Source: Deltaproteobacteria bacterium
GTDB taxonomy: Bacteria; Myxococcota_A; Polyangia; JAAYKL01
Length of the DNA: 64,000 nucleotides
Direction of reading: 5' to 3'
Assembly: GCA_016935665.1 (NCBI GenBank)
Contig: JAFGQN010000070.1
Location: 378 to 64,377 of the forward strand
Shown here: positions 104-23,839 of the stretch, one piece after another
How positions within the stretch are numbered: position 1 is the stretch's first letter
How the letters are laid out: every line of letters begins with the position of its first letter
The notes under the pieces: generated by a model
Seen by the model: the letters and a program-made list of their open reading frames with translations, nothing else
The model's database searches: none
Told to the model about the DNA's origin: nothing
Position numbers and translations under genes: made by a program

Positions 104-213
104 ACAGGAGTGCCACTACAATAATGCAGATAAATAAATGGATGAGGACATTTTCAAAAATTGCACCGTCAGTACACAGCGCCAACTGTTCTTTTAGTGA
201 AAGATGCACAATA

Positions 214-5472: not shown

Positions 5473-5550
5473 GAGGAATCTCTTTTAATACCGCTATGGT
5501 CATGGCATGGATGTATAGGGTACAATGTGACGTCGCCAATTATTTCAAAA

Positions 5551-5574
5551 TTAGTGTGATGAAAAACACACTAA
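5551..5574. promoter_or_regulatory. perfect 8-bp inverted repeat (TTAGTGTG-N8-CACACTAA) ~80-100 nt upstream of the giant NTPase gene
   Basis: Read directly: ttagtgtg atgaaaaa cacactaa. The position fits an operator or 5' hairpin for the minus-strand gene starting at 5472. Function is unproven. Confidence 0.3.
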
Positions 5575-5699
5575 TAATGGCAACAAAGGAAACGCAACTG
5601 ATTCTGCAGTGGGGAATTTTTACCATTTCACCCCACATAAACTTGCACTTCGTATGCAGTTTTCCTCTGTAAGCTCCCCCCGGTTCTGAGCTGTTGTTG

Positions 5700-6281: not shown

Positions 6282-6550
6282 TCGCTCCAGCCATCAACAT
6301 ACTCCCGGCAATCGGCAAAGCGATGCTAAACGTTTTTTCGCGGTCAGACATTTGTTCGCCACTCGCAGCCGCAAGAATTCCTCCGGAGGAAGGACTCAAT
6401 AAATATGATATCCCGAGCATCCAACCAAGAGAGGATTGCAGCTTAGCCATTCCTCGTACGTACCTCTCAACGACCCATGATTCTTACGATTACATCAGAC
6501 AAATATCAGCAGATTAAATCAAACCAAGATCCGCACCAAAAGCAAACAAC

Positions 6551-6811
6551 GTGATTATTTCTGTATCGCGAAGCCTTGGATGGAAGCTTTGTTTGATCCA
6601 GTCCAATTTCTTTAGAACAGATAACGAAATTGATTATCTGGAAAAGTTCATTCCAACACTTGCCCAAAGCGCCACCAGGAAGGCCTGCCAGGATGCGTTG
6701 TGTCGCGGCAATACTGTTACTGAAATCGTTGATGGCAAGATAGTGGAAACCGCTCCAGACGGCACCCGAACAATCATCGGGGACGCCAAACCGATGGTAA
6801 AGGTTTGTTAA
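6551..6811 (+). CDS. small hypothetical protein
   Basis: GTG-start 86-aa ORF. The C-terminal part (ATRKACQDALCRGNTVTEIVDGKIVETAPDGTRTIIGDAKPMVKV) resembles a widespread small-protein pattern I recall but cannot name. It competes with antisense ORF 6506..6985. Confidence 0.3.
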   Translation: MIISVSRSLGWKLCLIQSNFFRTDNEIDYLEKFIPTLAQSATRKACQDALCRGNTVTEIVDGKIVETAPDGTRTIIGDAKPMVKVC

Positions 6812-7495
6812 GTCCCAAACCCGGGTAATTATTTTTCTGGCTGTTTCCAAAACAAAATTTCGGGTGTGCGACGCCATGCAGTATGTCGCGCAGCATGATT
6901 TATTTATGCCAGAGGCAAGCAGACTGCCCTGCAATGCCCATTTTGCACAATTTGGCGGCAGTGGACGCAGGCGGGCAGAATTCATTTGCGATTTCTTTTT
7001 CCTGCCAGGTTAAATCTTCATCAATCAGTTTTTCAAAAGCGTCAGGCCGCATGTTTTCATGTGACACTGGCAGGTGGAGCTGACGCTTTGCAGTTTCGGG
7101 CGGCGTCCCCCCTTTTTTGTGCTGCCATGGCGATGCAATACAGAAAGATTTAAGTCGTTTGCATGGTTGGTTTTAACCAGAATTTAATCAGTGTGGTGTG
7201 TCTGGTGATGAAATAGGTCGTATTGGGTAAAAATTGTCCGGGCAATGTCACGTCCCCCTATCGGCCGTTTTCGAGATTTGTTGCATTTAAAGAAAAAAAA
7301 GTAACCGGGACGGGATCACGGGATCACGGAAAGCGCTGGATGACCCGCGTAGCAGAGCCACAATCAGGGATGACACAGAAATATCAGGGCTTGCAAACGG
7401 CAGCGGATTCGTCGTTGAGTTTGGGAAAATCAATCTTTCTGGGACGCGTTTGATTTAATTTTCAATAATTCTACTACTGTGGTAAAAATTTACAA

Positions 7496-9106: not shown

Positions 9107-9391
9107 CAAATCAACCGTTGTAGGGGGTCATGTGTTAAGGGGCTGTTGCCCAAACAGAAGTTTCGATTCCTGCAACAGTCTGTTTTCTGTCACTTTCATC
9201 TTCATCGCCACTTCGTTATTAAATAAAAGTAAAAAACGGTTTCGTGTCTGCGATGTCGCCTTCATCACAGGAGCAGAGCGGCTGTTCTTTGATTACAACG
9301 TACGTTCCATGGTTGGCGCATCTTTTTTGTAAATGCACTCATTTCAAATTCTATTCTATTGGGTGTTTGTCTTAACGCCGGAAAGACAAAT

Positions 9392-10273
9392 TCAGACTTT
9401 CATATTTTCAGCCGCAGGAAGGTTGGCGAGATGGGTGCGGTAGGCGACCGGGGTTTTCTTGAATACTTTTTTAAACACGCGATAGAAGTGACTGGTGTCG
9501 AAGAAGCCGAATTCCCGCGCCACTTCGTCAATGGAACTGGGACCCTGCAATGCCAGCGCAGCAGATTTGAGCCGGTGGTGCAGGGCGAAGCGTGCAAAGG
9601 TGACGCCCATTGTCTGTTTGAATTTGCGTCGGAAGGTGCTGGTCGACATACGACATGCCCGGGCGCCCTCCAGTTCCGTTACAATGTGATGGCCTTTGAA
9701 AACCAGCTGCAGCGCGGGCGAAATGGTGTGTATGGTTTCTGTTTCAAAAGGGATACTTCCGTTGACGTTGTTTTTCAAATGCTGCAGCAACTGAAGCAGT
9801 ACCAGATATGAGTGGGTGGCATGGTCATCCGGGGGAGTGGCGTCGCCCCGTTCATTCAGAGTCATGAATTCAAGCTGCTGTTGGAGAATGCGCTTATACG
9901 GCGCCGATGTGGTGGGACGCGCCTCTGGGGGCAGGGCGAAAAGATGAAACCAATTCGTTTCGGGGCCGACACCCAGATGAAGTGCCGCCAGCAGTTCGGG
10001 GCGCAATAAAAAAACAGCCACTTTACAGGGCACTTCGGCAAGCCGGAACCCATGCGGCTCCCACACGTTGGTCATCCAGATGTCCCCGGCTGACAGGGTA
10101 CGCTGCGTGTTTTCCCAGAAACGATGCATGACGCCCTGCATCACCACTCCCACCTCCAGCTCGTAATGGATGTCAAAGACGGACTCCAAAGGATGTCGAT
10201 GCTCGGAAAATCCAAAAACATACGGGGAGGTTTCTCCGGTTGGCTCCAGCAATATGGGGGTGTGCGTCAGCAT
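9392..10273 (-). CDS. AraC-family transcriptional regulator (cupin-like N-domain + HTH)
   Basis: C-terminal AraC-type double HTH: STFRRKFKQTMGVTFARFALHHRLKSAALAL ... IDEVAREFGFFDTSHFYRVFKKVFKKTPVAYR. The N-terminal ~150 aa is beta-rich, like AraC ligand domains. Divergent from the lipoprotein gene at 10406. Confidence 0.9.
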   Translation of the reverse strand: MLTHTPILLEPTGETSPYVFGFSEHRHPLESVFDIHYELEVGVVMQGVMHRFWENTQRTLSAGDIWMTNVWEPHGFRLAEVPCKVAVFLLRPELLAALHLGVGPETNWFHLFALPPEARPTTSAPYKRILQQQLEFMTLNERGDATPPDDHATHSYLVLLQLLQHLKNNVNGSIPFETETIHTISPALQLVFKGHHIVTELEGARACRMSTSTFRRKFKQTMGVTFARFALHHRLKSAALALQGPSSIDEVAREFGFFDTSHFYRVFKKVFKKTPVAYRTHLANLPAAENMKV

Positions 10274-10405
10274 GCTGATTTCAGCTTATTGAATTTGAGT
10301 GGAATATACAATCGGTTCAGCCGCATTGTGCAAGGACACGGTGTGAAATATCCAATACAATACAGGTTGAGCGGATTGGGGGCGAATTCATGAAAGGGCA
10401 ATTAT

Positions 10406-11092
10406 ATGAAATACATTGTACTCTGGCTGGTCATCGTTTTCGCAGCGGCCTGTGCCTCGGAATCGTCCAGTGAGTCCGAAATCGAAAAGGACAGTGGCGA
10501 TTCCGGAGATGACAGTTCCGGTGATGATGATGACAGTAATGACGATTCCGGTAATGACGATTCCGGTGATGACAGTTCCGGAGATGACAGTTCCGGTGAT
10601 ACGGATACCGGCGACGATGATACGAATCACGATTCCGGGGACGACGATTCGGCGGATGGGGATGACAGGGACAACGACACGGCAAACACCGATGACCTGG
10701 AATGGCAGGAAGCCAATCTGACGTGGTATGAATCGTATCCGGAAGAAGGCAGCGAGGAATGCGACGAGTACAATGGCTGTGAATGGGCGGGATGGTTTGC
10801 CGGGCTCCCCGACCAGATGAGCCCCGACTGGGTGGCGGCCACCAATATCGCATCGGTGCACTCTGACGTGTTTGGGGAGTACAACGGAAAAACGCTGCGC
10901 TTGCGGGGGCCTGAGGGTCAGGAGATTGATGTCGTGGTGTACGATATGTGCAGCGATGATGATTGCAGTGGCTGTTGCACGCAGAACATGCGGCAAACCG
11001 GCTTTTTAATCGACCTCGAAATCCACACCGCTGACCGCTTTGGTGTGCACAGTGGCGTGGTGGAATTTACCTGCCTCGATTGTGACAACTAA
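10406..11092 (+). CDS. secreted lipoprotein with (DDSGx)n linker and an expansin/GH45/RlpA-like double-psi beta-barrel-type C-domain (tentative)
   Basis: Lipobox LVIVFAAAC|A, then 15-bp-period acidic repeats (DDSGN DDSGD DSSGD DSSGD, ~10545-10604). The Cys-containing C-domain reads TWYESYPEEGSEECDEYNGCEWAG...VVVYDMCSDDDCSGCCTQN...LIDLE. The fold assignment comes from pattern memory only. Confidence 0.75.
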   Translation: MKYIVLWLVIVFAAACASESSSESEIEKDSGDSGDDSSGDDDDSNDDSGNDDSGDDSSGDDSSGDTDTGDDDTNHDSGDDDSADGDDRDNDTANTDDLEWQEANLTWYESYPEEGSEECDEYNGCEWAGWFAGLPDQMSPDWVAATNIASVHSDVFGEYNGKTLRLRGPEGQEIDVVVYDMCSDDDCSGCCTQNMRQTGFLIDLEIHTADRFGVHSGVVEFTCLDCDN

Positions 11093-11218
11093 GTTTTTTC
11101 TGCGGGCGAATATAGTTCAAACGCCAAGTCGTTTTTTTGTCGCCCGTCATCAATTCAAAGCACATCATCACTGGTGTGCGTTCTGTGAGATAGTGCGAAA
11201 CGGCCGACAGACGCAGGT

Positions 11219-11329
11219 CTAATTTTCGTCGGAGAGTTTATCCTTCTTTTTTTGGTCTTTATCCTTCTTTTTCTTTTCTTTTTGTTTCGCCATTTTGTTT
11301 TTGTCTTTTTTTCCGCCTTTGTCGCCCAT
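11219..11329 (-). CDS. possible 36-aa lysine-rich micro-protein
   Basis: GGAG lies 7 nt before an ATG, giving MGDKGGKKDKNKMAKQKEKKKKDKDQKKKDKLSDEN*. The sequence is low-complexity, and an alternative 63-aa frame (11155..11346) is equally open, so this is weak. Confidence 0.3.
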   Translation of the reverse strand: MGDKGGKKDKNKMAKQKEKKKKDKDQKKKDKLSDEN

Positions 11330-11578
11330 ATCAGTGCTCCTTGCAATGGCTTGCCCCAGCGTAAATGCCGGATGAACCCGCCAAATTAAAATGAAATCGT
11401 ATACATCCTACGCTGATTACAATAATTAGGTGAAAAATCGTCGATAACCAAATCAGGTAGAGCGACTTCCGGTGTGATTCCGCTGGTAGACTTTCCCCCA
11501 AATAAAGCAGTGGGGAAGGGGTTGAGCAACGCCTTCCAGAGCATGGTTTAGGTGGGCTGCGATATTTTTCGCAAACTT

Positions 11579-11606
11579 TTGTACACAAAAAGGATTGTGG
11601 TATAGT
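11579..11606 (+). promoter_or_regulatory. sigma70-like promoter candidate (TTGTAC-N16-TATAGT), possibly giving a leaderless mRNA at ATG 11613
   Basis: TATAGT at 11601-11606 is preceded by TG (extended -10). The ATG at 11613 lies 6 nt downstream. The -35 is weak. The dyad TTTTGT-AC-ACAAAA overlaps the -35 region. Confidence 0.35.
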
Positions 11607-12917
11607 CGCCCCATGACACCAGATGAACAGCAATTTTTAAAGGAATTTTACCAGGCCCTGGCGGATAGGCCATTGGACCCTGAAGAACATTGGTACCAGC
11701 CGTTTTACAAGCTTGCTGCGCAACACCCCGACCCGGTAGAAGATTTGCTTAAGGGGATAGAGTGGGCAGAGACGCTGGAAACCGCCCAGTTGTTTAGCGG
11801 ATTCCGTGGCACAGGCAAAAGCACCGAACTGAGACGTCTGCAGCAGCGGTTGGCGCAAAATGGTCAATACAAAGTATTGCGCTGCGATATGCAGGAGTAT
11901 CTAAACCTGTCGACACCAATCGATATCAGCGACTTTTTGATTGCAATCGCAGGCGCGTTTAGTGAGAAGCTTGCCGAAGATGATTTCCTTGGAGACGATC
12001 CGTCCCATGAGAATTATTGGGACCGGATAAGTAATTTTCTTACCAAAACGAAAATCAATTTTGAAAGCGTGTTTTTACAAATTCCCGGTGTCGACATAAA
12101 GGCAAATCTGAAGCAGGACCCCAGCTTTAAAAGCAAACTTCAGCAGGAAATGAAAGGGCACCTTGGCGCTCTGGCCAATGATGTGCGTTTGTATCTTGAA
12201 AGCTGCATAAAAAAGCTGAGAAATAAACACGGTGACGATACCCAGGTTGTGCTTTTGCTCGATTCCATTGAGCAGATCAGGGGCACCTCAGTGAATGAAG
12301 ATGATGTGTACGCGTCGGTGGAGACCGTCTTCCAGGGGCATGCCGACAAGCTGCGCCTGCCGTATATTCACGTGGTGTACACGGTTCCCCCGTGGCTTAA
12401 AATCCGGTCCCCCGGGGTGGCGGCGCTGTACAGCAACAGTGAGCACTTGCCGTGCATTAAAGTGCGGCAACCGGATGGCGCCCCGGACCAGACCGGCGTG
12501 GCGGCACTCGTCGAACTCGTTGGCAAACGTGGTGACTGGCAAAAGCTGTTTGGTTCAAAGGAAAATCTCGAACGGGTCATTCTCGCCTCTGGTGGTTATT
12601 TGAGAGATTTACTTCGGCTGCTGCAGCGCTGTTTGCGGCAGGCCTCATCTTTGCCAATAGATAAAACCACCATCGAGATGGCGGAACATCATATCCGAAA
12701 CAGCTACTTGCCAATTTCCCGGGATGATGCGGTGTGGCTCAATCGCGTTGCCACGACGCATCGTGCGGAGTTGATGGCGGGGAGCGACCTCGGTCATCTC
12801 TCCCGTTTCTTCGATACCCACCTGATTTTGTGTTACCGCAATGGGAAAGAGTGGTTTGATGTCCATCCGTTGATTGCCGAACACGTCCGTGAGCTGGCTC
12901 AGTTTGAAGCAGAGTAA
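11595..12917 (+). CDS. P-loop NTPase (STAND/AAA-like), first gene of an NTPase+TPR pair
   Basis: Walker A is FSGFRGTGKSTELRRL and Walker B is QVVLLLDSIEQI, with a helical C-terminal half. The start may be ATG 11613 (MTPDEQQFL...). It ends 10 nt before the next ORF. Confidence 0.85.
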   Translation: MWYSRPMTPDEQQFLKEFYQALADRPLDPEEHWYQPFYKLAAQHPDPVEDLLKGIEWAETLETAQLFSGFRGTGKSTELRRLQQRLAQNGQYKVLRCDMQEYLNLSTPIDISDFLIAIAGAFSEKLAEDDFLGDDPSHENYWDRISNFLTKTKINFESVFLQIPGVDIKANLKQDPSFKSKLQQEMKGHLGALANDVRLYLESCIKKLRNKHGDDTQVVLLLDSIEQIRGTSVNEDDVYASVETVFQGHADKLRLPYIHVVYTVPPWLKIRSPGVAALYSNSEHLPCIKVRQPDGAPDQTGVAALVELVGKRGDWQKLFGSKENLERVILASGGYLRDLLRLLQRCLRQASSLPIDKTTIEMAEHHIRNSYLPISRDDAVWLNRVATTHRAELMAGSDLGHLSRFFDTHLILCYRNGKEWFDVHPLIAEHVRELAQFEAE

Positions 12918-12927
12918 ATGAAAATGT

Positions 12928-14406
12928 GTGTGCATCATGGTTGAATCGTTGTTCAATTGGGGCGCCGAAAACGAAAAAGCATGGTTTGAACTAAAGCGTC
13001 ATCTTGAATGGGCCGATGGATTCTGGGTGGTGTTTGTTTTCTCTCCGTCTCAAATTAGCGCAGAAATGTTGAAACAACGGGTTGTCGAACAACTTGAAAC
13101 GATGCAACGGCCTTTCACTGTGGAACAGCCCGAGACGCCGGATGCGCTGGTTGATCTGATCTCAGCGTTCGTCGACAACCCGGATGTGCCCAGCCCCCTG
13201 ATGTGGGTTGAGGCGCTGCACAAAGATAAAGTCGATACGACGAGCACGGCGCGTCCCTGGGAACGGGGATGGGAAACACTCCTTCTTCGAACAAATGAGC
13301 GACGAGAACGGCTTCGTAAAAAGTTTCAAAATGGATTGGTGCTGGTCGCGCCGGAGAATTTGAAAAATGTGTTTCGAAACACGGCGCCGGATCTCTGGTC
13401 GGTGCGAACCATGCTCATCGAGCTCACGCCACCACGCTTTGACGCGGATAATAAAGGACTGGCCCAAAATGCAGAAATGACCGAGGCATCATTTAGGTCC
13501 CCCCCCAGTGGGGACCCCCCCAGCGATCCGGAGCTGGCACTGGCCGCTGCGCACCGACTGGAGAAGCAGCGACCGGATGCGCCCCTGGCCATCGCTCAGG
13601 CCTACACCCGCGCCGTGAGCGGGCTGATAAAAGCAGGCAGGGAAGATGAAGCTCGGATTGCAGCAGAAACGGCAGATAGGCACCTGCAGTCGATGGGGCT
13701 CCCTCCTGATGAGGATGAGAATTTATCTGCGACTGCAAATTTGGCGTCTGCGTTATTTAACCTTGGTAGCGCTTTTAACGAACTCGTCCGTTGGGAAGAC
13801 GCGCTTCGGGTCAACAGGCAGGCGACCGATTTGTATCGCCACCTCGTGGCGCAGCGTCCCGATGCGTTTATGCCGGATTTGGCGATGTCGCTCAACAACC
13901 TTGGAAATATGTACAGTGCTCTCGGGCGCCGTGAAGAAGCGCAGGAAGCGACGTTTGAGGCCGTTGAGAAGTATCGAGAGCTGGCGAGTGATCGTCCCGA
14001 TGCGTTTATGCCTGATTTGGCGGGTGCGCTCAACAACCTTGGAAACAGTTACAGTGATCTCGGGCGCCGCGAAGAAGCGCTGGAAGCGACGTTGGAGGCA
14101 GTTGAGAAGTATCGAGAGCTGGCGAGTGATCGTCCCGATGCGTTTATGCCTGATTTGGCGATGTCGCTCAACAACCTTGGAAACAGGTACAGTGATCTCG
14201 GGTGCCGCGAAGAAGCGCTGGAAGCGATGTTTGAGGCAGTGCGAAAATTGGCGTCGTTCTTTTTGCGGTTGCCTGCGGCATATGGAAATTGGATGGGAAT
14301 ATTCCTGCGCAATTATATCAAGAACGCTGAAGCGGCCGGACAGGAAGTGGATGGGGAATTGGTGGGGGCGATTCAGAAGGGGCTGGAGGCACTGGGAGAA
14401 AACTGA
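12928..14406 (+). CDS. TPR-repeat protein (kinesin-light-chain-type TPR_10/12 units) with ~180-aa unknown N-domain
   Basis: Three near-identical 46-aa units of the form DRPDAFMPDLAxSLNNLGNxYSxLGRREEAxEAxxEAVEKYRELAS, plus flanking degenerate units. The N-domain (FWVVFVFSPSQISAEMLKQRVVEQL...) resembles pseudo-NTPase N-domains seen in STAND-associated TPR proteins (recollection only). Confidence 0.85.
   Translation: MCIMVESLFNWGAENEKAWFELKRHLEWADGFWVVFVFSPSQISAEMLKQRVVEQLETMQRPFTVEQPETPDALVDLISAFVDNPDVPSPLMWVEALHKDKVDTTSTARPWERGWETLLLRTNERRERLRKKFQNGLVLVAPENLKNVFRNTAPDLWSVRTMLIELTPPRFDADNKGLAQNAEMTEASFRSPPSGDPPSDPELALAAAHRLEKQRPDAPLAIAQAYTRAVSGLIKAGREDEARIAAETADRHLQSMGLPPDEDENLSATANLASALFNLGSAFNELVRWEDALRVNRQATDLYRHLVAQRPDAFMPDLAMSLNNLGNMYSALGRREEAQEATFEAVEKYRELASDRPDAFMPDLAGALNNLGNSYSDLGRREEALEATLEAVEKYRELASDRPDAFMPDLAMSLNNLGNRYSDLGCREEALEAMFEAVRKLASFFLRLPAAYGNWMGIFLRNYIKNAEAAGQEVDGELVGAIQKGLEALGEN
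13855..14250 (+). repeat. 138-bp tandem repeats (about 2.9 copies) inside the TPR gene
   Basis: CGTCCCGATGCGTTTATGCC... restarts at 13855, 13993 and 14131, an exact 138-nt period. Copies differ at only a few positions by eye. Confidence 0.85.
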
Positions 14407-14620
14407 CACGCCTTTATTCCGTGCCCTTCGAGACGCCACGTTTGGACGTTGGCTCCTCAGGACAGCGGAATCTGTCTGAATCTGTCGGAACTATTGCTTT
14501 GCGAACAGGAAACCCAAATAAAAATCCAAATTATCCCCAAAATCCCATTGGCGCATTCCGTACGATTGTGGAATCGTTAGTTCGTATGCAAACAGAATAT
14601 TATTCCAGGCACCAAATAAA

Positions 14621-14899
14621 GTGGCCGCATTAACAACCGCTTTGGCGGCCATCAGCGAAGATGTGCGCCAGGCCGACATTAAACTGGTTGAAAAACGGGA
14701 GGCCATGGATGCCTACGACAAAGGCTTTTCCGCCACCGCCGATTTAATTTCCACTCTGCTTAAACTGGCCGGCGAAGACGAACTGGCCAAACGGGTGCGC
14801 CCCTCCTCAAGGCGACCGGGCCAAACGGTTGAAGACGCCAACGACGCGCTCCTCGACGTCGAAGAACCTTCCGAACAAGCTGCGGTGGACGTGGCGTAA
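14621..14899 (+). CDS. small hypothetical protein (92 aa)
   Basis: GTG-start ORF: MAALTTALAAISEDVRQADIKLVEKREAMDAYDKGF...RRPGQTVEDANDALLDVEEPSEQAAVDVA. It is helical with an acidic tail and has no family call. It ends 15 nt before the palindrome array. Confidence 0.35.
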   Translation: MAALTTALAAISEDVRQADIKLVEKREAMDAYDKGFSATADLISTLLKLAGEDELAKRVRPSSRRPGQTVEDANDALLDVEEPSEQAAVDVA

Positions 14900-14913
14900 C
14901 GCCTCCATTCCTG

Positions 14914-15140
14914 TCAAAACCACTTTTCCATCGATGTACCGAGCACATCACCCATTCGAAACCGGTTTTTACCCAGTGGTCCCAGTTGCCCATTCACTCA
15001 AAACCACTTTTCCTCGCCCTGGCAGACGCCATCATTCATTGAAAAGTACTTTTCAACGCAATGGGCATATAAAAATCCCGGTCAAAAGCACTTTTGAGTC
15101 GTATGGCACTGGTGCTAATTGAGCAAAAAGTACTTTTGAA
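14914..15140. repeat. array of six dyad-symmetric motifs (AAAAG-N2-CTTTT type) phased exactly 42 bp apart
   Basis: The six cores are at 14914-14929, 14958-14970, 14998-15013, 15039-15056 (perfect 18-mer TTGAAAAGTACTTTTCAA), 15082-15097 and 15124-15140. The dyad centres are 14921.5, 14963.5, 15005.5, 15047.5, 15089.5 and 15131.5. Confidence 0.8.
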
Positions 15141-15399
15141 CCTGATGCCCGTCTCCAATACCCCTATCAAAATAACCAAACGCCAATGTCATGAAACAAA
15201 AAAACACGGTCGCCGCTGTGAACGTCACACCATTGACCAGTCATTGGTTATATCCCCGGTTTCCCCATGCCAGGAGATTGTGCACGCCTGCGTTTGCCCG
15301 GCTGCCTCTATAGAGTAAAATTAGGAAATCATTCAAGACGTGACGGAAAAAAAACAGGAGGTGGAACACAAACGTTTCACTCCACGAAAGGAAGAATGT

Positions 15400-17289
15400 A
15401 TGAAAAGAATGCTTTTTTTTAAGATGGTATGGATACTGGCTGCATCGATGATTATCAGCTGTGAGGGAACTGGCAATCAGGATTCGAGCGAAAAAGATTT
15501 GGCCGCTTTCGCAACGATGGGGAAGGGCGTGGCAGCGTTGAGAGTCCAGGCAGCGGGGCTTTCCATTGCGGATATTGCCCGAGTGGAAGTAAGCGTGAAT
15601 GGCGACTATATCTCTCCAGACATCACTGCGACACTTTCAAAGAATACCGGCGGTGAATGGACAGGTATAGTCAATGACATCCCGGCTGGTGAAGGTCGTA
15701 CGTTCACGGTTGGCGCGTATGATTCGAGTGATGCGCTGCTGTACGATGGCGCCGCATCCGGGGTTGTTATTGTGGATGGCGCAACCGCTTCTGTTACAGT
15801 ATTTTTGCAACCATCCATTTCACCGGATCCGTTTTTCAACGCCGTTCCCCGGTTTACTTCCTTGTCCCTTTCTGCCAGTCAGATAGCACCAGGACACACA
15901 GTGTGGATGAGTGCCGAAGCTGCAGATCCCGATGGCGATGTCCTTGCATCCTCGTGGTCTTCCAGTGGGGGATCATTTGGTACCAGTGACAATTGGAACA
16001 CGACGTGGACAGCACCGACTACTCCAGGAAATTATGAAATTACCGTTGCCGTGGCTGATACATCCGGTGCGACGGCCACAATCAGTTTTAGTGTTGACGT
16101 TCAGGTGCATTATGGCAGCGGTAGCGCCACGGTGAATCTGAATATCAACAACTGGCCTGAAATTGCGAATCTTGTGCCCTCTTTGACCCGTATCAATGTG
16201 GGAGAATCGACGTCTCTTGAGTTGACAGCTGCAGACCCGGATAGAGATCCGCTGGCGTTTACATGGACATCTGATTGTATTGGTGTGTTCAGCGATGCCA
16301 CATTGGAAGACCCGATATTTACACTTACAAACGACAACGATGGTCTCGACTGTACGATTGCGGTCTCTGTAACTGATGGGCGCGGAGGCAGCAATCAGGC
16401 GAGTGTTGCCATCCAGACCGGCGATGCTGTGGCGCCTGTTATTGTTCCGGAGACAGGGTGGACAACGCTGGCTCCGATGCCCGTAAAGGCAAGTGCGTTT
16501 TCCTATATCCGCTATATGGATTCTGTGTACATCATCGGAGGCGGGCTCGATAATGAGGGGTCCAACACTTCGACAAATGTACAAAAATATCATATTCCAA
16601 CAAATACCTGGGAGACCGACATCAACCATGGCGGATCTCTTGCGCCGCTGCCGGCGCCAAGGGCGTTCGGTCTCAATTCCGGTGTTATTAATGACAGGAT
16701 TCATACCGTTGGCGGCTGGGATGAAGGTGGGACATACCAGAATACACATTTCATCTATGATCCGTCCAACAATACCTGGTCTTCAGGTGTGCCTCTTCCG
16801 AACTATCCAATTGGTCAGTTTTCCGCTGTAGTGGACAACGCGTTTTACGTGATGGGTGGCTGGTGGGGGTCATTCCAGTCAACGGTTTTAAAATATACTG
16901 ACGTCGATGGGTGGACAGAGGTAAGTGCCATGGCAACAGCGCGCAACCATGCAACGACTGCTGTTGTTGGCGGTAAAATTTACGTGATTGGCGGGGAAGC
17001 TGCCAATATACCTCAGGTGGATACGGTCGAAGTGTACGACCCACAGTCAGATAGCTGGACAACAGGACTGGCACCATTGCCAACTCCGCAGTCATATCTC
17101 GGGTGGTGCGGCTCGCCGGTACTGAACGGCAGAATTTATCTCGTGACGAGTTATCGGTATGATCCGGCACTTGACATATGGACTGAATCATTTCCTCCTG
17201 TTCCAGGTGGCGTCGTTGCGGCTATTGAATGGCTGGGAAGCATTTATGCCTTTGGCGGTGATCTGACGATAGGTGGTACTCCCATGTAG
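15400..17289 (+). CDS. lipoprotein with Ig/PKD-like modules and a C-terminal Kelch-type beta-propeller
   Basis: The ORF is open from 15340, but AGGAAG plus ATG 15400 gives MKRMLFFKMVWILAASMIISC|EG (lipobox). There are two Ig-like modules (AADPDGDVLASSWSSSGG..., AADPDRDPLAFTWTSDC...). The Kelch blades read VYIIGGG, RIHTVGGW, AFYVMGGW, KIYVIGGE, GRIYLV and SIYAFGGD. Confidence 0.85.
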   Translation: MKRMLFFKMVWILAASMIISCEGTGNQDSSEKDLAAFATMGKGVAALRVQAAGLSIADIARVEVSVNGDYISPDITATLSKNTGGEWTGIVNDIPAGEGRTFTVGAYDSSDALLYDGAASGVVIVDGATASVTVFLQPSISPDPFFNAVPRFTSLSLSASQIAPGHTVWMSAEAADPDGDVLASSWSSSGGSFGTSDNWNTTWTAPTTPGNYEITVAVADTSGATATISFSVDVQVHYGSGSATVNLNINNWPEIANLVPSLTRINVGESTSLELTAADPDRDPLAFTWTSDCIGVFSDATLEDPIFTLTNDNDGLDCTIAVSVTDGRGGSNQASVAIQTGDAVAPVIVPETGWTTLAPMPVKASAFSYIRYMDSVYIIGGGLDNEGSNTSTNVQKYHIPTNTWETDINHGGSLAPLPAPRAFGLNSGVINDRIHTVGGWDEGGTYQNTHFIYDPSNNTWSSGVPLPNYPIGQFSAVVDNAFYVMGGWWGSFQSTVLKYTDVDGWTEVSAMATARNHATTAVVGGKIYVIGGEAANIPQVDTVEVYDPQSDSWTTGLAPLPTPQSYLGWCGSPVLNGRIYLVTSYRYDPALDIWTESFPPVPGGVVAAIEWLGSIYAFGGDLTIGGTPM

Positions 17290-17703
17290 TTTGTTCAAGA
17301 GTCACCGGCTAAAAGGTATGTGACGCGTTGTGGCACCCGTTCCTGGCTCACCTTGAGGGACTGTTGCCCAAACAAAGTTTTCACACCCATTGCCGCTTCG
17401 AATCAATTTCATCGGACGTATATTCAGGCCGCAGTTCCACGGTGCATACCGGTGATCAGGGGCAGCCTGGGTTATGTTTGCCGGAAGTTAATAAAAAATC
17501 AGTTCGTAAAATTCCAGTTTTTTAATTCAACTTATAACCCTCTCTGCCGATGTAGGGTTCAGGACATCACATGCACGCTTTGTTTTTTTGATATTGCAAA
17601 AAGCGTTTTTAAAAACGGAGACTCCGCGTTGAGTCATCCATTTGATTCTCAATCTATATGAGTGATGCCCGCCAGTTAAAAATAATCGCGTAGTCAAAAA
17701 AGA

Positions 17704-20319
17704 TTGATGGGGGAAATCGACATGAGCACCACACTCGACGACGATTTGGGCACATTGCAAGAGCTGGACTATTATCGCACGCTGGCAAAGAAATTAATGC
17801 ATAAAGGGGTAAAGGGACTATGCGATGCAGATAATGAACAATGGAACAATGATTGGGACAGTGATAATACTATTTCCAATGCTCTGGTGGTGCGCTCTCA
17901 TGCTCTCGCATTGCAAATAGATCCATCGGATGATAGCTGTTCAGGTGATACCAGCAGGACTTACATCCAAAGAGTGATACATACGGAAAATGACGTGTTG
18001 GCGCGGCCGCAGGAGGATTTACCAGTGTATAAAGCCGCGAGAATTTTGCACGCATTAATTCGTTCGCAGGGACATATTCTTTCTAAAATATCCGTTTTGT
18101 CGCTGTACCGGGTGCTTCGTGAATTTTACGATGTTCAACCCCCTGAAATGAATACCGGCGGTACAAGAGCGGGAGAAGGCGCCAGAGCGACGTCATTTAT
18201 GACTCTTCAATGTGTGCTGGCGGTAAAAGGCTTTTGCGACGCGATAAACAATACGATTCAATTGCTCGACAAGATAGCGCACATTGTTTCTATCCGAAAA
18301 ATGATTGAAAGCAATCGTATTGCCAAGCCGAACGCGTGGAAAGAATTAGTGAACGACTATATGGAAATGAACCTGACAATCGAGTTTCAGGATCTGACAG
18401 GTCGGGAATTTTTTGGGCCACAAATAAATATCACCAAGGATAATGTCTGGAAATACGTCGAGTCTTTTCCGGGGGATTTCGCAATTTTCCTGAAAGACGG
18501 AATCAATGAAATAGACAAGGCGCTGCAGGAAATCGACGAAAGACGCGTTGAAGAAGCACAGCAATATAGTGAAAACCCCATCCGTTGGCATGCGAAGATT
18601 CCCTTCGAAAATGCGTCCCATGAAATATCTAAAAACGCTATTTTTCACTGCAGGAAACGTCTTGAGGTTTTATGCACCGCATTGTGTGGAACCCCTGCCT
18701 GGGATAGTGTCAACTGGCATAATGCAGTTCAAGAGCTTCAGTCCTGCCATGATAAATTTAAAGAACTGATCAGGCCGTCAAAAAGATACTTCTCAAATGC
18801 GATGAATCGTTTTTTGAGTTTTCAGGATGAACACGCTTTTCAGAGCGATATTGCTGAGCTGGTATTTTCTGCGGTGGGATATGGGTGCGTTAAAGAAAAA
18901 TGGGATAGCAAAAGAATAGTGGACGCTATTTATCGCGCACTTGAATTCATTTCGCCTAAAGGAAAGCTGCCTTCGGGGCATCCTTTTTCAATGGGCCAAA
19001 AAGGATGGCTGCTTCATATTATTTGCCCACAGGTATTTCACTATCTTGCTATAGCAATTAAGGAGTTCAATCCTCCCAATCCCAGGGAACATTTAGATCT
19101 GGATAGGCTCAAAGAAGCTGTCAAACGAATGATATGCTGGTTTGATGACAACAAATTTATCTTTGATAATACCGACAACATCGGCTGGACAATGGATACG
19201 CCCACAGAACCCAAAAAGCCAGAGCGGTGGGTGTCAGTCTGGTGCACACTGGCGTTAAATAAAATCGTAGCTTTGCTTGATAAAGTGATTAACCAGTGTG
19301 TTTATAAACATGTCGATGTGAAATCCCCGGAAGAGCTTGATGTAGAGCTTCACCAAATGATTGTCAGCGACTTTGGATTACGGCAAAAAAAATCCGTCGC
19401 TTTCATGCTGGCAGACATGCAGAATCATTTGCTGGGGCACCAACCCCTGGTCAGTGAACGTCCAATTTTTTCAGCGGTTCTGCATGGGCCACCTGGCACT
19501 GGAAAAACCACAATTGCAGAAGCGCTGGCAAAAACTGCCAGGGCGCAGTTCGTACAGATTACGCCGAGTGATATTGTAGTTGGTGGTGCGGAGCAGGCAG
19601 AAAGATCGGCCAGAAATTTGTTTCAGGCGCTGTGCATGCTTACCAATACAGTCATTTTGTTCGATGAATTTGATCCTATCCTATGGCACCGAGATCCAGA
19701 CGGGAAAGTACCGACGACTGTGTTTGAATACTTAACACCAGGGATGCTGCCAAAGCTGAAAGACCTGTATCGTGCGGCAAAGCGTCAGCGCAACGTATAC
19801 ATGCTTGCCACAAACAATATGCGGGCTTTGGATGATGCTGCTACCCGTAAGGGGCGATTCGATGAAAAGCTGGGCATCTACCCTCCAGACCTTTTGTCCA
19901 GAGTGGGACAATTGGCTTTAGCGTGTGAGAAGCATGCTGAGGAATCCAACACGAGCAGTGCATCCGGTTGGGAAAAAAGATTTGCCCGCGTTATTCAAAA
20001 AACTGCGGGGGGGCCAATGGATACTCTCGGGAAACCAGGATGGTTCACTCCCCCAGACAGTTCAATTAAACCAGATACTATTTTCGACTATCTCTGGAAA
20101 GATGGTCCTGAACCGGATTGGCCCGATTCGGAAGCCACCATGCAGGAAAAGTTAGAGAAAAAAGACTGCAATACCAAATCCATGAAACAGGCATACCTGG
20201 AACAGGAAGAGTGGCAATGGGTCATCGATTGGGACAGGCGTGCGGGGGAAGGCTGGCAGCAAATGGTTGAGGCGCTGCGGCATCCTTTGCAGAAACCCAA
20301 CGTGGGCTGGGATGTGTAA
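17704..20319 (+). CDS. 871-aa protein: ~590-aa unknown N-terminal region + classical AAA+ ATPase module + ~130-aa W/E-rich tail
   Basis: Walker A is VLHGPPGTGKTT, Walker B is VILFDEFD, the sensor-1 region is YMLATNN, and the Arg-finger region is DDAATRKGRFDEKLGIYPP. Likely starts are ATG 17707 or ATG 17722 (GGGGGA RBS). AT-rich. Confidence 0.9.
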   Translation: MMGEIDMSTTLDDDLGTLQELDYYRTLAKKLMHKGVKGLCDADNEQWNNDWDSDNTISNALVVRSHALALQIDPSDDSCSGDTSRTYIQRVIHTENDVLARPQEDLPVYKAARILHALIRSQGHILSKISVLSLYRVLREFYDVQPPEMNTGGTRAGEGARATSFMTLQCVLAVKGFCDAINNTIQLLDKIAHIVSIRKMIESNRIAKPNAWKELVNDYMEMNLTIEFQDLTGREFFGPQINITKDNVWKYVESFPGDFAIFLKDGINEIDKALQEIDERRVEEAQQYSENPIRWHAKIPFENASHEISKNAIFHCRKRLEVLCTALCGTPAWDSVNWHNAVQELQSCHDKFKELIRPSKRYFSNAMNRFLSFQDEHAFQSDIAELVFSAVGYGCVKEKWDSKRIVDAIYRALEFISPKGKLPSGHPFSMGQKGWLLHIICPQVFHYLAIAIKEFNPPNPREHLDLDRLKEAVKRMICWFDDNKFIFDNTDNIGWTMDTPTEPKKPERWVSVWCTLALNKIVALLDKVINQCVYKHVDVKSPEELDVELHQMIVSDFGLRQKKSVAFMLADMQNHLLGHQPLVSERPIFSAVLHGPPGTGKTTIAEALAKTARAQFVQITPSDIVVGGAEQAERSARNLFQALCMLTNTVILFDEFDPILWHRDPDGKVPTTVFEYLTPGMLPKLKDLYRAAKRQRNVYMLATNNMRALDDAATRKGRFDEKLGIYPPDLLSRVGQLALACEKHAEESNTSSASGWEKRFARVIQKTAGGPMDTLGKPGWFTPPDSSIKPDTIFDYLWKDGPEPDWPDSEATMQEKLEKKDCNTKSMKQAYLEQEEWQWVIDWDRRAGEGWQQMVEALRHPLQKPNVGWDV

Positions 20320-20328
20320 GCAATCAAT

Positions 20329-20356
20329 AAAAAAAACTGCCCGTTCAATTCGGCAG
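20329..20356 (-). terminator. intrinsic terminator candidate oriented on the minus strand
   Basis: The minus strand reads CTGCCG-AATTGAA-CGGGCAG followed by TTTTTTTT: a 6-bp stem with one bulge, a 7-nt loop and a T8 tract. On the plus strand no T tract follows the hairpin. Confidence 0.4.
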
Positions 20357-20376
20357 ATAAAAGAAAGGATAAAACA

Positions 20377-20664
20377 ATGGCAAGTGTATTTTTGGAAGCG
20401 GACAAATTCATCACCAGCATGGACAATGATGGGAAGATTTCCATCAAATTTCGTTTTGCCAACCAGAGACATCCGGACGATGAAGAGAAATATGTAGAAA
20501 AGGAACTTCCTTCTTCTAATAAGGCTGAAAAAGAAATCTCGCAAAAATATGTCGAGTTTTTACAGAAGCAGTGTGCCGCAGGTGCAAAAATCTGGGTAGA
20601 ACTATCTGACCAGGTAGAAAAAATAGAATGCGAATCAAAATCCACATCTAATGGCATGGGGTAA
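20377..20664 (+). CDS. small hypothetical protein (95 aa)
   Basis: AAAGGA RBS 8 nt before the ATG. Product: MASVFLEADKFITSMDNDGKISIKFRFANQRHPDDEEKYVEKELPSSNKAEKEISQKYVEFLQKQCAAGAKIWVELSDQVEKIECESKSTSNGMG. No family recognised. The region could instead, or also, be transcribed antisense (see the terminator at 20329). Confidence 0.45.
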   Translation: MASVFLEADKFITSMDNDGKISIKFRFANQRHPDDEEKYVEKELPSSNKAEKEISQKYVEFLQKQCAAGAKIWVELSDQVEKIECESKSTSNGMG

Positions 20665-20733
20665 GCAACTTCAATTTTTCTTTTCTTTTATGGTTAATCC
20701 AATCAGTTCCTGACTTGCACACTTTCCAGAACT

Positions 20734-20762
20734 TTGACTTGGCGTTTAGCTGCAGCTATATT
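20734..20762 (+). promoter_or_regulatory. sigma70-type promoter TTGACT-N17-TATATT for the deaminase gene
   Basis: TTGACT at 20734-20739, a 17-nt spacer, TATATT at 20757-20762. A strong GGGAGGGG RBS precedes ATG 20822. Confidence 0.5.
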
Positions 20763-20821
20763 TTTCTGACTATGGATAAAATAGAAAAAGTGATTTTACG
20801 CCTGTCCCGGGAGGGGATGAG

Positions 20822-22309
20822 ATGAAACAAACTGATCGTTCTCCAATGCTGGTATTTAGCATATGTGGCCAGGTTGGTGCCGGGTTGTCGCTTGTGCGTC
20901 GGAAAATTGCACAGACACTGTCGTCATTTGGGTATGAGTGTATTGCTGTGGATATCAGCCAGGTTGTACTGGAGATGTTTTACAAAAAAGTCATTGAGGA
21001 AGAAGCGGACGGCAATCATACTGGCCTGAAATCCGATGCGGCGCGGCGCATATATATGTTGCAAAGAAGGGGAAACCAGCTTCGCTCCAGGTTTGGGAAT
21101 GACATAATAACTAAAGTATCTGTATCCCATATCATATGGCAGGAATTGCAACGGTCGGACAACAGGCGAATCGCATGGTTGATTGACAGTGTGAAACATC
21201 ACGAGGAAGTGGCTTTTTTACGGGAGCTGTTTGGGGATTCGTATTTTGCCATTGGCGTCATCTCCACAGATTCCGTGCGAAAAAGACGTTTGATGGAGAA
21301 AAAGGGATTCACCGGTGAAGAATTCAATGTGCTTTCAGAAATAGACGCCAGAGAAAAAGGTCTTGAGCACGGTCAAAGCACCATTAAGGCGATTACTCAA
21401 TCGGACTATTTCTTTTCAAATGATTATGCGACAGCAGACAATCTTGAAATCGAGGCGCAACGGCTTCTTCGGCTGATTTTTTCTGTTGGCGTCGATACAC
21501 CGAGACTTGATGAATACGCTATGAGCATTGCCGCCAATGCGGCGAATCAATCCGGGTGTCTGGCAAGGCAGGTGGGCGCCAGCATTGTCAACTCTTCGGG
21601 GCAGCTAATTGCTACCGGCCGAAATGATGTGCCGCAATACGGTGGTGGGCTGTACACTGTTGAGTCCAGAAAAGATCACCGATGCTGGGCCCAGGCCGGA
21701 CAATGCTATAACGATCATCACAAGATGAATATCATTCAGGGCCTAACCACTGAGATAGGAGAGTCTCTCGGTTTAACCCCTGAAAAAAGAGAATCTGTTG
21801 AGGAAATCCTGAAGCACTCGCCCATTGATTCTCTTATTGAATTCTCCAGAGCTGTCCATGCTGAAATGGACGCATTGATGTCCATCGCCAGAGAAGAAAT
21901 CCCCGGCCTGAAAGGGGCATCACTGTACTGTACAACATTCCCTTGTCATAATTGTGCAAAGCACATCATTGCTGCCGGAATTCGAAGAGTTGTGTATCTC
22001 GAACCCTATGACAAAAGCCTTGCGCGGGAGCTTCATTCGGACGCAATAATGAACCCACTTCGGGACAACGAAGATGGAAAAATTCCATTCGATTCCTTTG
22101 GTGGCGTCGCACCAAGACGATATAGCCAGCTGTTTGGTATTAATCGGCGTCGAAAAGATAGAAAAAGCGGAAAATACATAGATCTGGATTTTAAACGAGA
22201 AAATTTGTATCCTCTTGGTGCTCAGGATGAAAAGAGTATCTATCAAAAGGTGGAAAAGGCTGCTATGGTGCTGGTCGAAAATGCGCCTGAAATGCAGGAT
22301 AGCAAGTAG
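20822..22309 (+). CDS. avcD: AvcD/DCD-like antiphage deoxycytidylate deaminase (N-terminal kinase/P-loop-like domain + C-terminal dCMP/cytidine deaminase)
   Basis: The zinc-deaminase motifs are SRAVHAEMDALMSI (H-A-E) and YCTTFPCHNCAKHI (PCxxC), preceded by CLARQVGASIV...GRND. The N-terminal ~200 aa has a degenerate P-loop SICGQVGAGLS (no Lys). Size (495 aa) and domain order match the AvcD / dCTP-deaminase defence family. Confidence 0.85.
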   Translation: MKQTDRSPMLVFSICGQVGAGLSLVRRKIAQTLSSFGYECIAVDISQVVLEMFYKKVIEEEADGNHTGLKSDAARRIYMLQRRGNQLRSRFGNDIITKVSVSHIIWQELQRSDNRRIAWLIDSVKHHEEVAFLRELFGDSYFAIGVISTDSVRKRRLMEKKGFTGEEFNVLSEIDAREKGLEHGQSTIKAITQSDYFFSNDYATADNLEIEAQRLLRLIFSVGVDTPRLDEYAMSIAANAANQSGCLARQVGASIVNSSGQLIATGRNDVPQYGGGLYTVESRKDHRCWAQAGQCYNDHHKMNIIQGLTTEIGESLGLTPEKRESVEEILKHSPIDSLIEFSRAVHAEMDALMSIAREEIPGLKGASLYCTTFPCHNCAKHIIAAGIRRVVYLEPYDKSLARELHSDAIMNPLRDNEDGKIPFDSFGGVAPRRYSQLFGINRRRKDRKSGKYIDLDFKRENLYPLGAQDEKSIYQKVEKAAMVLVENAPEMQDSK

Positions 22310-22328: not shown

Positions 22329-22511
22329 ATGTCTACACACAATAAATATGAAGAAATTAGAAAAATGAGTGCTGCGGACAGAGAAGAGATTTATCGTTTT
22401 GCCATGCAGCGTTCCAAAGAGATGCTGTCGGGCATTGACTGCGAATCGCAATCTATCTCACCCATCAATGACGTTGGTACATCAAGTAAAGACAAATTAT
22501 CATTTCGTTAG
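22329..22511 (+). CDS. small hypothetical protein (60 aa) immediately downstream of the deaminase
   Basis: GAGG RBS, with the ATG 19 nt after the deaminase stop. Product: MSTHNKYEEIRKMSAADREEIYRFAMQRSKEMLSGIDCESQSISPINDVGTSSKDKLSFR. No family call. Confidence 0.35.
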   Translation: MSTHNKYEEIRKMSAADREEIYRFAMQRSKEMLSGIDCESQSISPINDVGTSSKDKLSFR

Positions 22512-22648: not shown

Positions 22649-23308
22649 CTAGTTTGATTTTGTGTGCGCTGCTTCCCAGTCGAGAATGGTCATGATGTCG
22701 TTGATGAGGCCGGTAACATCGACATTTTCATCAATTTCGTGACTTTTCGCTTCTTTACTGGCGCCGGCATCTTTTGGCGCTTGTTTGGCGTCAGAAACAT
22801 TCCCCGTTTTTACGACAGAAAACGCCACTGAAGTGAGCTCTTTGTCGTTGGTGGTTTCGTTCATTCGAAAATCGTACTGACCCTCCTTTTTTGGGGCGGT
22901 AAATTCGAATGTACCATTGGTTTTTCCCTGCAGATATTTGTACGAGATGTCGTGCTGATCGTTGGTTTTGGTAGAGCCATGGGGTTTATCCGCTTCAAGA
23001 ATACCAATCCACGAATTGGTGGGATACGTGGCGCTCGCGTTGAATTTGATTTCAATTTTTTCACCAGGCGCAAAGACGTTTTTGGATAGCGTCAGTTTTG
23101 CAGCGGCCTTATCCACCGCCTCTGAAAAACGGGTATGCGTCAGTTCTTTATTGGTTGCCGGGTTATTGAATCGGACGTCGTATGCCCCTTCACTCTTTGG
23201 CGCCGTGAATTCGAACTGGCGCGTATCGCCCACATACTTGTAAGCGATATCATGCTGATCATTTTTGCTCACATCACCATGGGCAATATTGGCCGGCAAA
23301 ATGCCCAC
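22649..23308 (-). CDS. protein with two tandem ~95-aa domains of unknown family (possibly N-terminally truncated or interrupted)
   Basis: The internal repeats are WVGILPANIAHGDVSKNDQHDIAYKYVGDTRQFEFTAPKSEGAYDVRFN and WIGILEADKPHGSTKTNDQHDISYKYLQGKTNGTFEFTAPKKEGQYDFRMN. The annotated start is GTG, but domain-like sequence continues upstream to an in-frame TGA at 23372-23374. Confidence 0.7.
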   Translation of the reverse strand: MGILPANIAHGDVSKNDQHDIAYKYVGDTRQFEFTAPKSEGAYDVRFNNPATNKELTHTRFSEAVDKAAAKLTLSKNVFAPGEKIEIKFNASATYPTNSWIGILEADKPHGSTKTNDQHDISYKYLQGKTNGTFEFTAPKKEGQYDFRMNETTNDKELTSVAFSVVKTGNVSDAKQAPKDAGASKEAKSHEIDENVDVTGLINDIMTILDWEAAHTKSN

Positions 23309-23839
23309 CCACGCGTTTGATGGGATTTTTTCAGAAATCGATACAGAGCTTCGGCCAGACCATTTGCGATGTCACAGCTTTCCAGTGCTTTGGCATCCGG
23401 TATAAATGGCGTGCGCCAGCATCCAAACCCCTGGGAGACACAAGGCCCATTGGCCGATTTTTACATGATGGGGAGGCGTCCACCGGTTTGGGATTGGGGA
23501 ATTATCAATTGCATCGGACATATATTTAAACAGCAGTTCAGCGGTGTGTACCAGTGACCAGGGTCAGCTTCGGCTTATAAGTCCGTCCTTTAAGTTGACT
23601 GACCTCAGTCTCACAGAGTGATTCAGACCACCATCAGAATTGGCACTGTGATCGATATCCGAACCTCATCCAGTAAGCATTCGAAGAAAAAGAAGGAAAT
23701 TGATAAGAATCGGCAAGCGACTTGTCGTGGGAGCCTCCGGATTAAGAACAAAACCAGCTTTCGCCGTCAAGCATACCACGATTGCCATGTGACCGTTACT
23801 GTTGTGAAATGGACTTTTACACTGTTATTGAAAGGCGGG

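Follow-up and report, generated by a model that had tools for sequence, protein, structure and literature searches.

An unannotated family of AAA+ ATPases with an all-alpha N-domain, and the possible link of one member to an AvcD-type deaminase in a deltaproteobacterial gene islet

The locus and its AAA+ gene

The stretch of DNA considered here (the window) comprises 64,000 nucleotides (nt) of contig JAFGQN010000070.1, assembled from a Deltaproteobacteria bacterium. It contains, on the plus strand and within a 6.1-kb segment bracketed by a direct repeat, a gene for an AAA+ ATPase of 865 amino acid residues (aa; 17722..20319), a 95-aa open reading frame (ORF; 20377..20664) and a gene for an AvcD-type anti-phage dCTP/dCMP deaminase of 495 aa (20822..22309). 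As judged from family-wide alignments, the ATPase is a true though divergent member of a conserved, unnamed family, whose architecture consists of an all-alpha N-domain of ~550 aa, one classical AAA+ module and a tryptophan-rich C-terminal extension, and it is a plausible candidate member of a new family of defence-associated ATPases.

The longest frame of the AAA+ gene opens with a TTG at 17704 and ends at 20319 (871 aa). The ATG at 17722, which has the sequence GGGGGA 7 nt upstream as a putative ribosome binding site, appears to be the likelier start, and the 865-aa product obtained from it is identical to the public gene call (P0001); residue numbers below refer to this product unless otherwise stated.

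The alpha/beta core of the AAA+ module is encoded by 19372..19887 on the plus strand and contains a Walker A motif (GPPGTGKT; 19486-19509, aa 589-596), a Walker B motif (ILFDEFD; 19654-19674, aa 645-651), a sensor-1 motif (LATNN; 19804-19818, aa 695-699) and an arginine-finger box (RKGRFDEKL; 19846-19872, aa 709-717), in which R709 and R712 are 90-100% conserved across the family alignment. With both Walker motifs, sensor-1 and two arginine fingers present, the ATPase motifs of the module are intact. Pfam PF00004 is matched with an E-value of 9e-21 (75 bits against a cut-off of 21), and the only other Pfam matches are to generic P-loop models, all of them within aa ~560-725. The top sequence matches in the PDB are to VAT, Cdc48/p97, AFG2 and NVL, extend over ~150 residues and end near aa 743 of the 871-aa form (~aa 737 of the 865-aa form), and the structural matches found with Foldseek for this module are to Rix7, NVL, p97 and Rpt. 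Together these matches assign the module to the classical clade of AAA+ proteins, as had been recognized in an earlier annotation of the window made from the sequence alone (the first-pass annotation), which had also picked out the Walker A, Walker B and arginine-finger motifs.

The module aligns with those of the classical unfoldases (Cdc48/p97/VAT, AFG2, NVL/Rix7, Rpt/PAN and FtsH) over ~150 residues at 25-30% identity, and has in common with them Walker A, Walker B, sensor-1 and the double-arginine second region of homology. Unlike these proteins, the window protein has a single AAA module, joined to an unrelated N-domain and C-terminal extension, and all its NCBIfam scores are far below the cut-offs of the respective families. 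The AAA lid and the conserved, tryptophan- and glutamate-rich C-terminal extension (19888..20316, plus strand; aa 723-865), delimited from the family alignments and a structural model, include the sequence EEWQWVIDWD (20206-20235); the extension is modelled by AlphaFold as helical, with a predicted local distance difference test score (pLDDT) of mostly 72-96 that falls to ~42 over the last five residues.

A further difference from the classical unfoldases lies in pore loop 1. The aromatic residue of this loop grips the translocating polypeptide in classical AAA+ unfoldases. In an ungapped alignment with VAT, KYYG of the latter stands opposite GGAE of the window protein, and the corresponding stretch (VVGGAEQ; 19576-19596, plus strand; aa 619-625) contains no aromatic residue, so that the aromatic-hydrophobic-glycine motif expected of a threading enzyme is absent. 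The aromatic position is occupied by glycine in 104 of 110 family members. Because the aromatic is replaced by glycine throughout the family, ATP would be used for assembly or switching and not for canonical threading, and the family ATPase probably works as a sensor or switch rather than as a threading unfoldase.

A widespread family unannotated outside its AAA module

The N-domain (17722..19371, plus strand; aa 1-550), defined from its relatives and from the AlphaFold model as family-specific and all-alpha, contains a conserved GW...W...L..IN block at aa 487-524; 13 cysteines and 13 tryptophans occur in the first 560 aa. The protein looked like an orphan in word-index searches, in which neither its full length nor the N-domain nor a profile of 40 sequences yielded anything but the query itself and AAA-only matches, whereas an exhaustive profile search gave hundreds of relatives. 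In the latter, aa 1-579 were compared by phmmer with 1.84 billion cluster representatives; 280 representatives were matched at E <= 1e-3 and 197 at E <= 1e-10, the best E-values being 2e-53 over aa 4-574. Nearly all of these relatives are 850-1000 aa long, and the match is collinear from the first residues up to the edge of the AAA module. In alignments of 40 and 110 members conservation runs along the whole length, including the tryptophan-rich C-terminal extension. The window protein is ~25-29% identical to its relatives in the N-domain and retains 104 of the 118 columns that are >=80% conserved among the other members. The first-pass annotation had described the N-terminal region as impossible to assign to a family, which is correct in that neither a named family nor a named fold can be given; the region is not unique, however, and defines a conserved unnamed family of ~280 clusters.

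Annotation of these proteins stops at the AAA core. No match was found in the N-domain of the window protein with Pfam, PADLOC, NCBIfam or PHROGs, and zero Pfam or PADLOC matches were found outside the AAA core of 40 family members. NCBIfam (20.0, June 2026) gave only generic AAA matches, far below threshold, for the window protein and three relatives. The search for known defence systems that the first-pass annotation had called for, carried out with PADLOC 2.0, gave only weak matches to IetA and TRIP13 that were confined to the AAA core. The public names of family proteins, where any are given, are "hypothetical protein", "ATP-binding protein" or similar. Neither the architecture nor the pairing of such an ATPase with an NDT-like protein (see below) is described in PADLOC 2.0, NCBIfam 20.0 or the literature searched, and the earlier statement that no described system has this architecture is upheld by these sources together with Pfam and PHROGs. 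The comparison adds that the N-domain does have relatives, and that the family it defines by sequence is widespread yet unannotated outside the AAA module.

The hosts of the family comprise Thermoanaerobaculia and other metagenome-assembled genomes (MAGs) of the Acidobacteriota, one deltaproteobacterial MAG and Bathyarchaeia, and one further host contig has neighbouring genes with Planctomycete-type PSD/PSCyt domains. Such a patchy phyletic spread is typical of accessory genes. No match was obtained in the plasmid collection with two N-domains as tblastn queries, and pattern-based retrieval with a narrow alignment, which yielded four genome and five metagenome loci, detected no family locus among viral contigs.

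Predicted structure of the N-domain

Monomer models were built with AlphaFold2 on the 110-sequence alignment. The full-length model has a pLDDT of 91.1 and a predicted template modelling score (pTM) of 0.93, and as Foldseek matched it to AAA+ proteins only, the N-domain was modelled separately (pLDDT 90.4, pTM 0.93). In the model the N-domain is almost wholly helical, with very long helices at aa 158-349 and compact helical regions on both sides, which together with its cysteine and tryptophan content bears out the earlier description of this region as helical and as containing both residues.

A match to a housekeeping family would have spoken against the first-pass proposal of a new defence system; in the Foldseek comparison of the N-domain, which had also been suggested, nothing significant was detected in the PDB (best E 0.07) or BFVD. 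The predicted N-domain structure thus matches no known structure. The matches ranked highest by template modelling (TM) score are (alpha/alpha)6 toroids, namely GH76, glucoamylase, squalene-hopene cyclase and GH88, as had been hinted by a faint likeness to alpha/alpha-toroid repeats noticed earlier; these matches are non-significant (TM 0.21-0.31 by query and up to 0.42 by target, E 0.4-0.6), and the hint does not amount to a fold assignment. A profile of the N-domain compared with PDB sequences returned coiled-coil and designed-bundle noise only, at aa ~240-360.

Genomic context of the relatives

A total of 22 further loci was obtained, of which 16 are distinct and lie outside the window's own. 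Not counted as distinct are L003 (a repeat of L001), L008 (syntenic with L007), L016 (the locus of the window itself), and L022 and L023 (both identical in locus to L021). When the ORFs of these loci were compared all against all, no universally conserved neighbour emerged. In one group of the family tree, however, each of the three members sampled has a PF05014 gene, for a nucleoside-2-deoxyribosyltransferase-like (NDT-like) protein, directly downstream of the ATPase gene: P0027 in L017, P0171 in L020 (Bathyarchaeia) and P0106 in L021. The NDT-like genes encode proteins of 192-205 aa and are spaced -13, +2 and +45 nt from the ATPase gene. Those of L017 and L020 are 52% identical, that of L021 matches solved NDTs with an E-value of 1e-12, and all three have the sequence GPSADVGTxYExGFA in common where solved NDTs carry their catalytic glutamate; none was matched by a PADLOC or NCBIfam model. 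NDT-like enzymes cleave N-glycosidic bonds. An NDT-like effector has been established in retron-Ec86 defence, in which it depletes NAD+ (PMC13276650).

Judging from their gene content, the surroundings of the three NDT-linked pairs are clearly defensive or mobile. In L021 a DISARM locus encloses the ATPase/NDT pair, with DrmB/DrmA/DrmMI on one side and DrmD on the other. The pair of L020 is surrounded by genes for SIR2_2, an Eco57I-type methyltransferase, a kinase-HD protein, Roc-COR and an integrase, and that of L017 by genes for an M78 peptidase, a ParB-methyltransferase, DUF5681 and DUF2924. An NDT-like sequence was not detected in the window (best tblastn E 1.1); the slot downstream of its ATPase gene is occupied by the 95-aa orphan ORF and then avcD.

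Two further observations concern these loci. In L021 (positions 1-18293), two unannotated genes (536 and 114 aa) have also been inserted in the DISARM locus beside the pair. The AAA+/NDT pairs of L017 and L020, which belong to two distant lineages, each have within ~3 kb a gene for a Ser/Thr-kinase protein of ~900 aa (5597-8341 in L017 and 13061-15874 in L020). The two kinase proteins are related (~38-41% identical), have mad6 as their best PADLOC match, and may be part of a MADS-like system next to the pair or else be its third component.

Neighbour-joining analysis placed the window protein together with the two NDT-linked groups in a clade of 18 leaves. This placement was recovered in 38 of 60 bootstrap replicates, with the exact sister unstable, and of the signature residues of the window protein five are common to the NDT-linked groups and five to the rest of the family, so that its position with the NDT-linked branch is suggestive only.

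The AvcD deaminase and the region upstream of it

The first-pass annotation had placed the ATPase gene beside a known defence gene, an AvcD-like deaminase, and this stands: the downstream gene product is identified by model matches as a genuine AvcD-type deaminase. The three NDT-linked relatives, too, are found in clear defence islands, in one case within DISARM. The deaminase matches the PADLOC dCTPase model with an E-value of 1.9e-140 and the NCBIfam model NF041025 with 416.9 bits (cut-off 400), in addition to PF00383 and phrog_9198 (6e-105). AvcD combines a P-loop-kinase-like N-terminus with a zinc deaminase domain, whose motifs are found here as HAEMDA (21857-21874) and PCHNCAKH (21941-21964), both on the plus strand. 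An ORF of 60 aa (22329-22511), which starts 19 nt after avcD, has coding-like codon usage and no family match.

The start of avcD lies 502 nt downstream of the ATPase stop on the same strand, and a terminator scan predicted no intrinsic terminator between the two genes. Within this gap, the 95-aa ORF (20377..20664, plus strand) begins 57 nt past the ATPase stop, with AAAGGA as a ribosome binding site 8 nt upstream of its ATG, as had been reported earlier, and is separated from avcD by a 157-nt spacer. In codon usage it scores log-odds of 0.27 and 0.22 per codon, comparable to the values of the segment's 60-, 150- and 219-aa ORFs (0.17-0.28), whereas local non-coding ORFs score ~0 and an antisense ORF that overlaps it scores 0.07 and 0.04; on codon usage, the 95-aa ORF is probably translated. 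It was not matched by any family in Pfam, PADLOC, NCBIfam or PHROGs, and no homologue of it was found in the phage and viral-contig collections or in the 16 distinct loci of ATPase homologues, duplicate contigs included. Small ORFs also follow the ATPase gene in L010, L012, L013 and L015; these are unrelated to each other and to the 95-aa ORF. The earlier suggestion that the 95-aa protein is the partner of the ATPase, which was to be examined through their co-occurrence, is therefore not sustained, and sequence comparison marks the ORF as a lineage-specific orphan and not as a conserved ATPase partner. That the ORF might be a decayed NDT gene is ruled out by the lack of similarity.

The first-pass annotation had also credited avcD with its own promoter, and the best sigma-70-like site of the segment (TTGACT-17-TATATT; 20734..20762, plus strand; 10 of 12 consensus matches) is indeed found ~60 nt upstream of the gene; the site is defined by its likeness to the consensus alone, and promoter-like sites are no more numerous in the region than expected from shuffled sequences. 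A hairpin, CTGCCCG-TTCAATT-CGGCAG, lies at 20337-20356, with A8 before it on the plus strand (20329-20356 as a whole). Read on the minus strand it resembles a terminator with a T8 run, a feature that the terminator scan missed, and its sequence hints at a possible antisense transcript across the 95-aa ORF.

Known AvcD systems are self-contained; AvcD is inhibited in them by a small RNA antitoxin, AvcI, which is encoded beside and upstream of avcD (PMC10511110, PMC9455884, PMC12409362). In the window, folding z-scores against shuffled sequences (+0.72 for 20660-20825 and -0.28 for 20320-20680) indicate that neither interval is unusually stable, and Rfam detected no match upstream of avcD, so that a structured AvcI-like RNA at this position is not supported by either approach.

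The segment that contains the three genes differs in composition from its surroundings (GC content 0.454 against 0.515 and 0.492 in the flanks), in agreement with the AT-rich composition and repeat-bracketed position that the first-pass annotation had ascribed to them. The bracketing direct repeat (left copy 17402..17478, right copy 23504..23580, both on the plus strand) was located by alignment and pattern search; it is ~77 nt long and imperfect, with copies ~80% identical, and its pattern is matched twice in the window against an expectation of zero. As att sites, the copies lack a long identical core and a tRNA gene, and no integrase was found among the proteins scanned around the segment; as gene ends, they show an apparent common reading frame that is explained by DNA identity alone. 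They may go back to former att sites or be copies of a dispersed intergenic element.

Comparison with described defence systems

Ietat provides the best-scoring match in the defence libraries, IetA/IteA (NF042959), which is likewise an AAA+ ATPase of classical type and acts together with an effector encoded by a gene of its own. The similarity is confined to the AAA core (35 bits with PADLOC; 30 bits with NCBIfam against a cut-off of 510), IetA is ~370 aa long and has no N-domain comparable to that of the window protein, and no IetS protease partner was found in the window or the homologue loci.

RADAR, in which a large ATPase stands, as sensor and effector, beside a nucleotide deaminase that alters or drains the nucleotide pool (PMC9994260), offers a conceptual likeness. 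The CDA-fold AvcD acts on deoxycytidine nucleotides and, unlike the RADAR effector, is not an adenosine deaminase, the two genes of the window are not tightly coupled, and PADLOC detected no RdrA or RdrB among the window proteins and 40 family members.

For CBASS, the TRIP13 match is likewise limited to the AAA core (30 bits), and neither a HORMA nor a cyclase match was found with Pfam or PADLOC among eight neighbouring window proteins. The effector of retron-Ec86/Eco1 belongs to the same NDT superfamily as the partners of the three related ATPases, and these partners keep the catalytic glutamate position; unlike the retron, however, the three NDT-linked loci show no Pfam reverse-transcriptase match in their gene lists. 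As to AvcID, the avcD product of the window passes the curated AvcD model, and in known systems the antitoxin RNA lies just upstream of this gene, whereas the described system contains no AAA+ ATPase. Membership can thus be claimed for the classical AAA+ fold in the case of the ATPase and for AvcD in the case of its neighbour, and nothing further.

Possible role of the ATPase and its relation to AvcD

The reading tentatively favoured here is that the ATPase, as a sensor or switch, and AvcD are two modules of one acquired defence islet. The protein would be an ATPase of defence islands, which would assemble by way of its intact AAA+ module and act as an ATP-driven sensor or switch, with the N-domain as a recognition or adaptor surface. 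A role in defence islands is suggested because the NDT-linked relatives are situated in such islands, a genuine AvcD adjoins the gene, and the family is patchily spread. Coupling of the ATPase to AvcD is favoured by their common strand, the lack of a predicted terminator between them and their common lower GC content. Modular defence systems often swap the effector next to a conserved sensor, and control of AvcD by the ATPase could possibly have come about by such a swap, the NDT being exchanged for the deaminase.

Several observations weigh against this reading. The adjacency of an AAA+ gene of this family and avcD is seen only in the window locus and an identical Logan contig. The two genes are 502 nt apart, with another ORF and a promoter-like site in between, in contrast to the tight coupling of the NDT partners. 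Twelve of the 16 distinct homologue loci have no adjacent effector, and several neighbourhoods are housekeeping-like, with genes for GatB, rhodanese, His-tRNA synthetase and M16 peptidases, for example. Support for grouping the window protein with the NDT-linked branch is only moderate, the pore-loop argument is derived from an alignment, and AvcD systems are self-contained with an adjacent RNA antitoxin (PMC10511110, PMC9455884).

Alternatively, the two genes could be independent neighbours, AvcD being a complete system with its own promoter and perhaps an AvcI-like RNA, the region of the 95-aa ORF belonging to it as antitoxin locus, and the AAA+ gene forming a separate single-gene unit, whether of defence or not, that only happens to lie in the islet. 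Such an arrangement, which is considered somewhat unlikely, agrees with the position of the segment's best promoter-like site (20734-20762), with the scarcity of adjacent effectors in the family, with a distance to avcD of 502 nt against -13 to +45 nt in the NDT pairs, and with the minus-strand hairpin and T8 run at 20329-20356, which suggest an antisense transcript over the 95-aa ORF; known AvcD antitoxin RNAs are, moreover, adjacent and upstream (PMC9455884, PMC10511110, PMC12409362). It is less easily reconciled with the folding z-scores and the empty Rfam search, which gave no signal of a structured RNA, or with the coding-like codon usage of the 95-aa ORF, and the recurrence of nucleotide-targeting enzymes beside related ATPases makes coincidence less attractive.

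The favoured reading of ATPase and AvcD as modules of one islet can be extended to the family as a whole, which would then be a modular anti-phage family in which an all-alpha sensor and an AAA+ ATPase devoid of the pore-loop aromatic control interchangeable effectors that act on small molecules or the nucleotide pool. An NDT-type N-glycosidase would fill this place in most members of one branch and AvcD would fill it here, with the ATPase as a protein regulator of AvcD that replaces or adds to the RNA antitoxin. In this general form the proposal is unlikely. Were the family one of defence, a widespread system in poorly studied phyla and archaea would have been invisible to annotation, and would combine a sensor domain without structural precedent with an AAA+ motor that apparently dispenses with substrate threading; the NDT pairing and the proximity of AvcD would extend the theme of attack on the nucleotide pool in immunity, and the idea would arise, open to testing, that deaminases of the AvcD type can be under the control of a protein ATPase in addition to that of an RNA antitoxin.

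A cellular remodelling ATPase with a housekeeping or stress role in Acidobacteriota, Planctomycetota and others, incidentally close to defence genes, is improbable. The neighbourhoods of L001/L003, L002, L014 and L019 are housekeeping-like, and synteny is kept between related MAGs (L001/L003, L007/L008). PADLOC scans of neighbouring genes likewise gave mostly generic helicase and kinase matches: 87 neighbouring ORFs, a sample not usable as enrichment evidence, yielded generic UvrD-type helicase/kinase matches and one phospholipase-effector match (8e-46; locus untraced), and a second scan, of ten large neighbours, contributed no more than a UvrD-type helicase and a weakly matched mad8-like ATPase. 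A cellular role is nevertheless hard to square with the patchy distribution across distant phyla, including archaea, with the position of the gene, absent though it is from the plasmid and phage collections, in mobile or defence islands in at least four loci, the window among them, and with toxin-antitoxin modules or STAND-like genes that flank several other copies (as read from translations and Pfam lists); no conserved metabolic or structural partner was found. The model of the first-pass annotation, in which the AAA+ ATPase and the 95-aa protein form a two-gene system with or without AvcD, is very improbable, as the 57-nt spacing, common strand, ribosome binding site, coding-like codon usage and identical gene order in an independent assembly of the same locus are set against a 95-aa protein that has no homologue in any locus or collection searched and no family or domain match, and against the unrelated small ORFs that follow other family members.

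Other features of the window

Inside the bracketed segment, an ORF of 219 aa on the minus strand (22649-23308) contains a two-fold internal duplication (GAYDVRFNNPATNKELTHTRFS and GQYDFRMNETTNDKELTSVAFS) and has only faint Pfam matches of beta-sandwich type. Just upstream of the islet, the region 11595-14406 encodes a 440-aa P-loop NTPase with weak Sll1717/STAND-like matches and, 10 nt further on, a 492-aa TPR protein with three 138-nt tandem units (13833-14246), and these two proteins may constitute a split STAND-like pair. Short-period, GAC/GAT-rich tandem repeats occur within ORFs further upstream of the islet (7607-7860 and 10495-10686); they would encode, by eye, Asp/Ser-rich stretches and apparently bear no relation to the ATPase.

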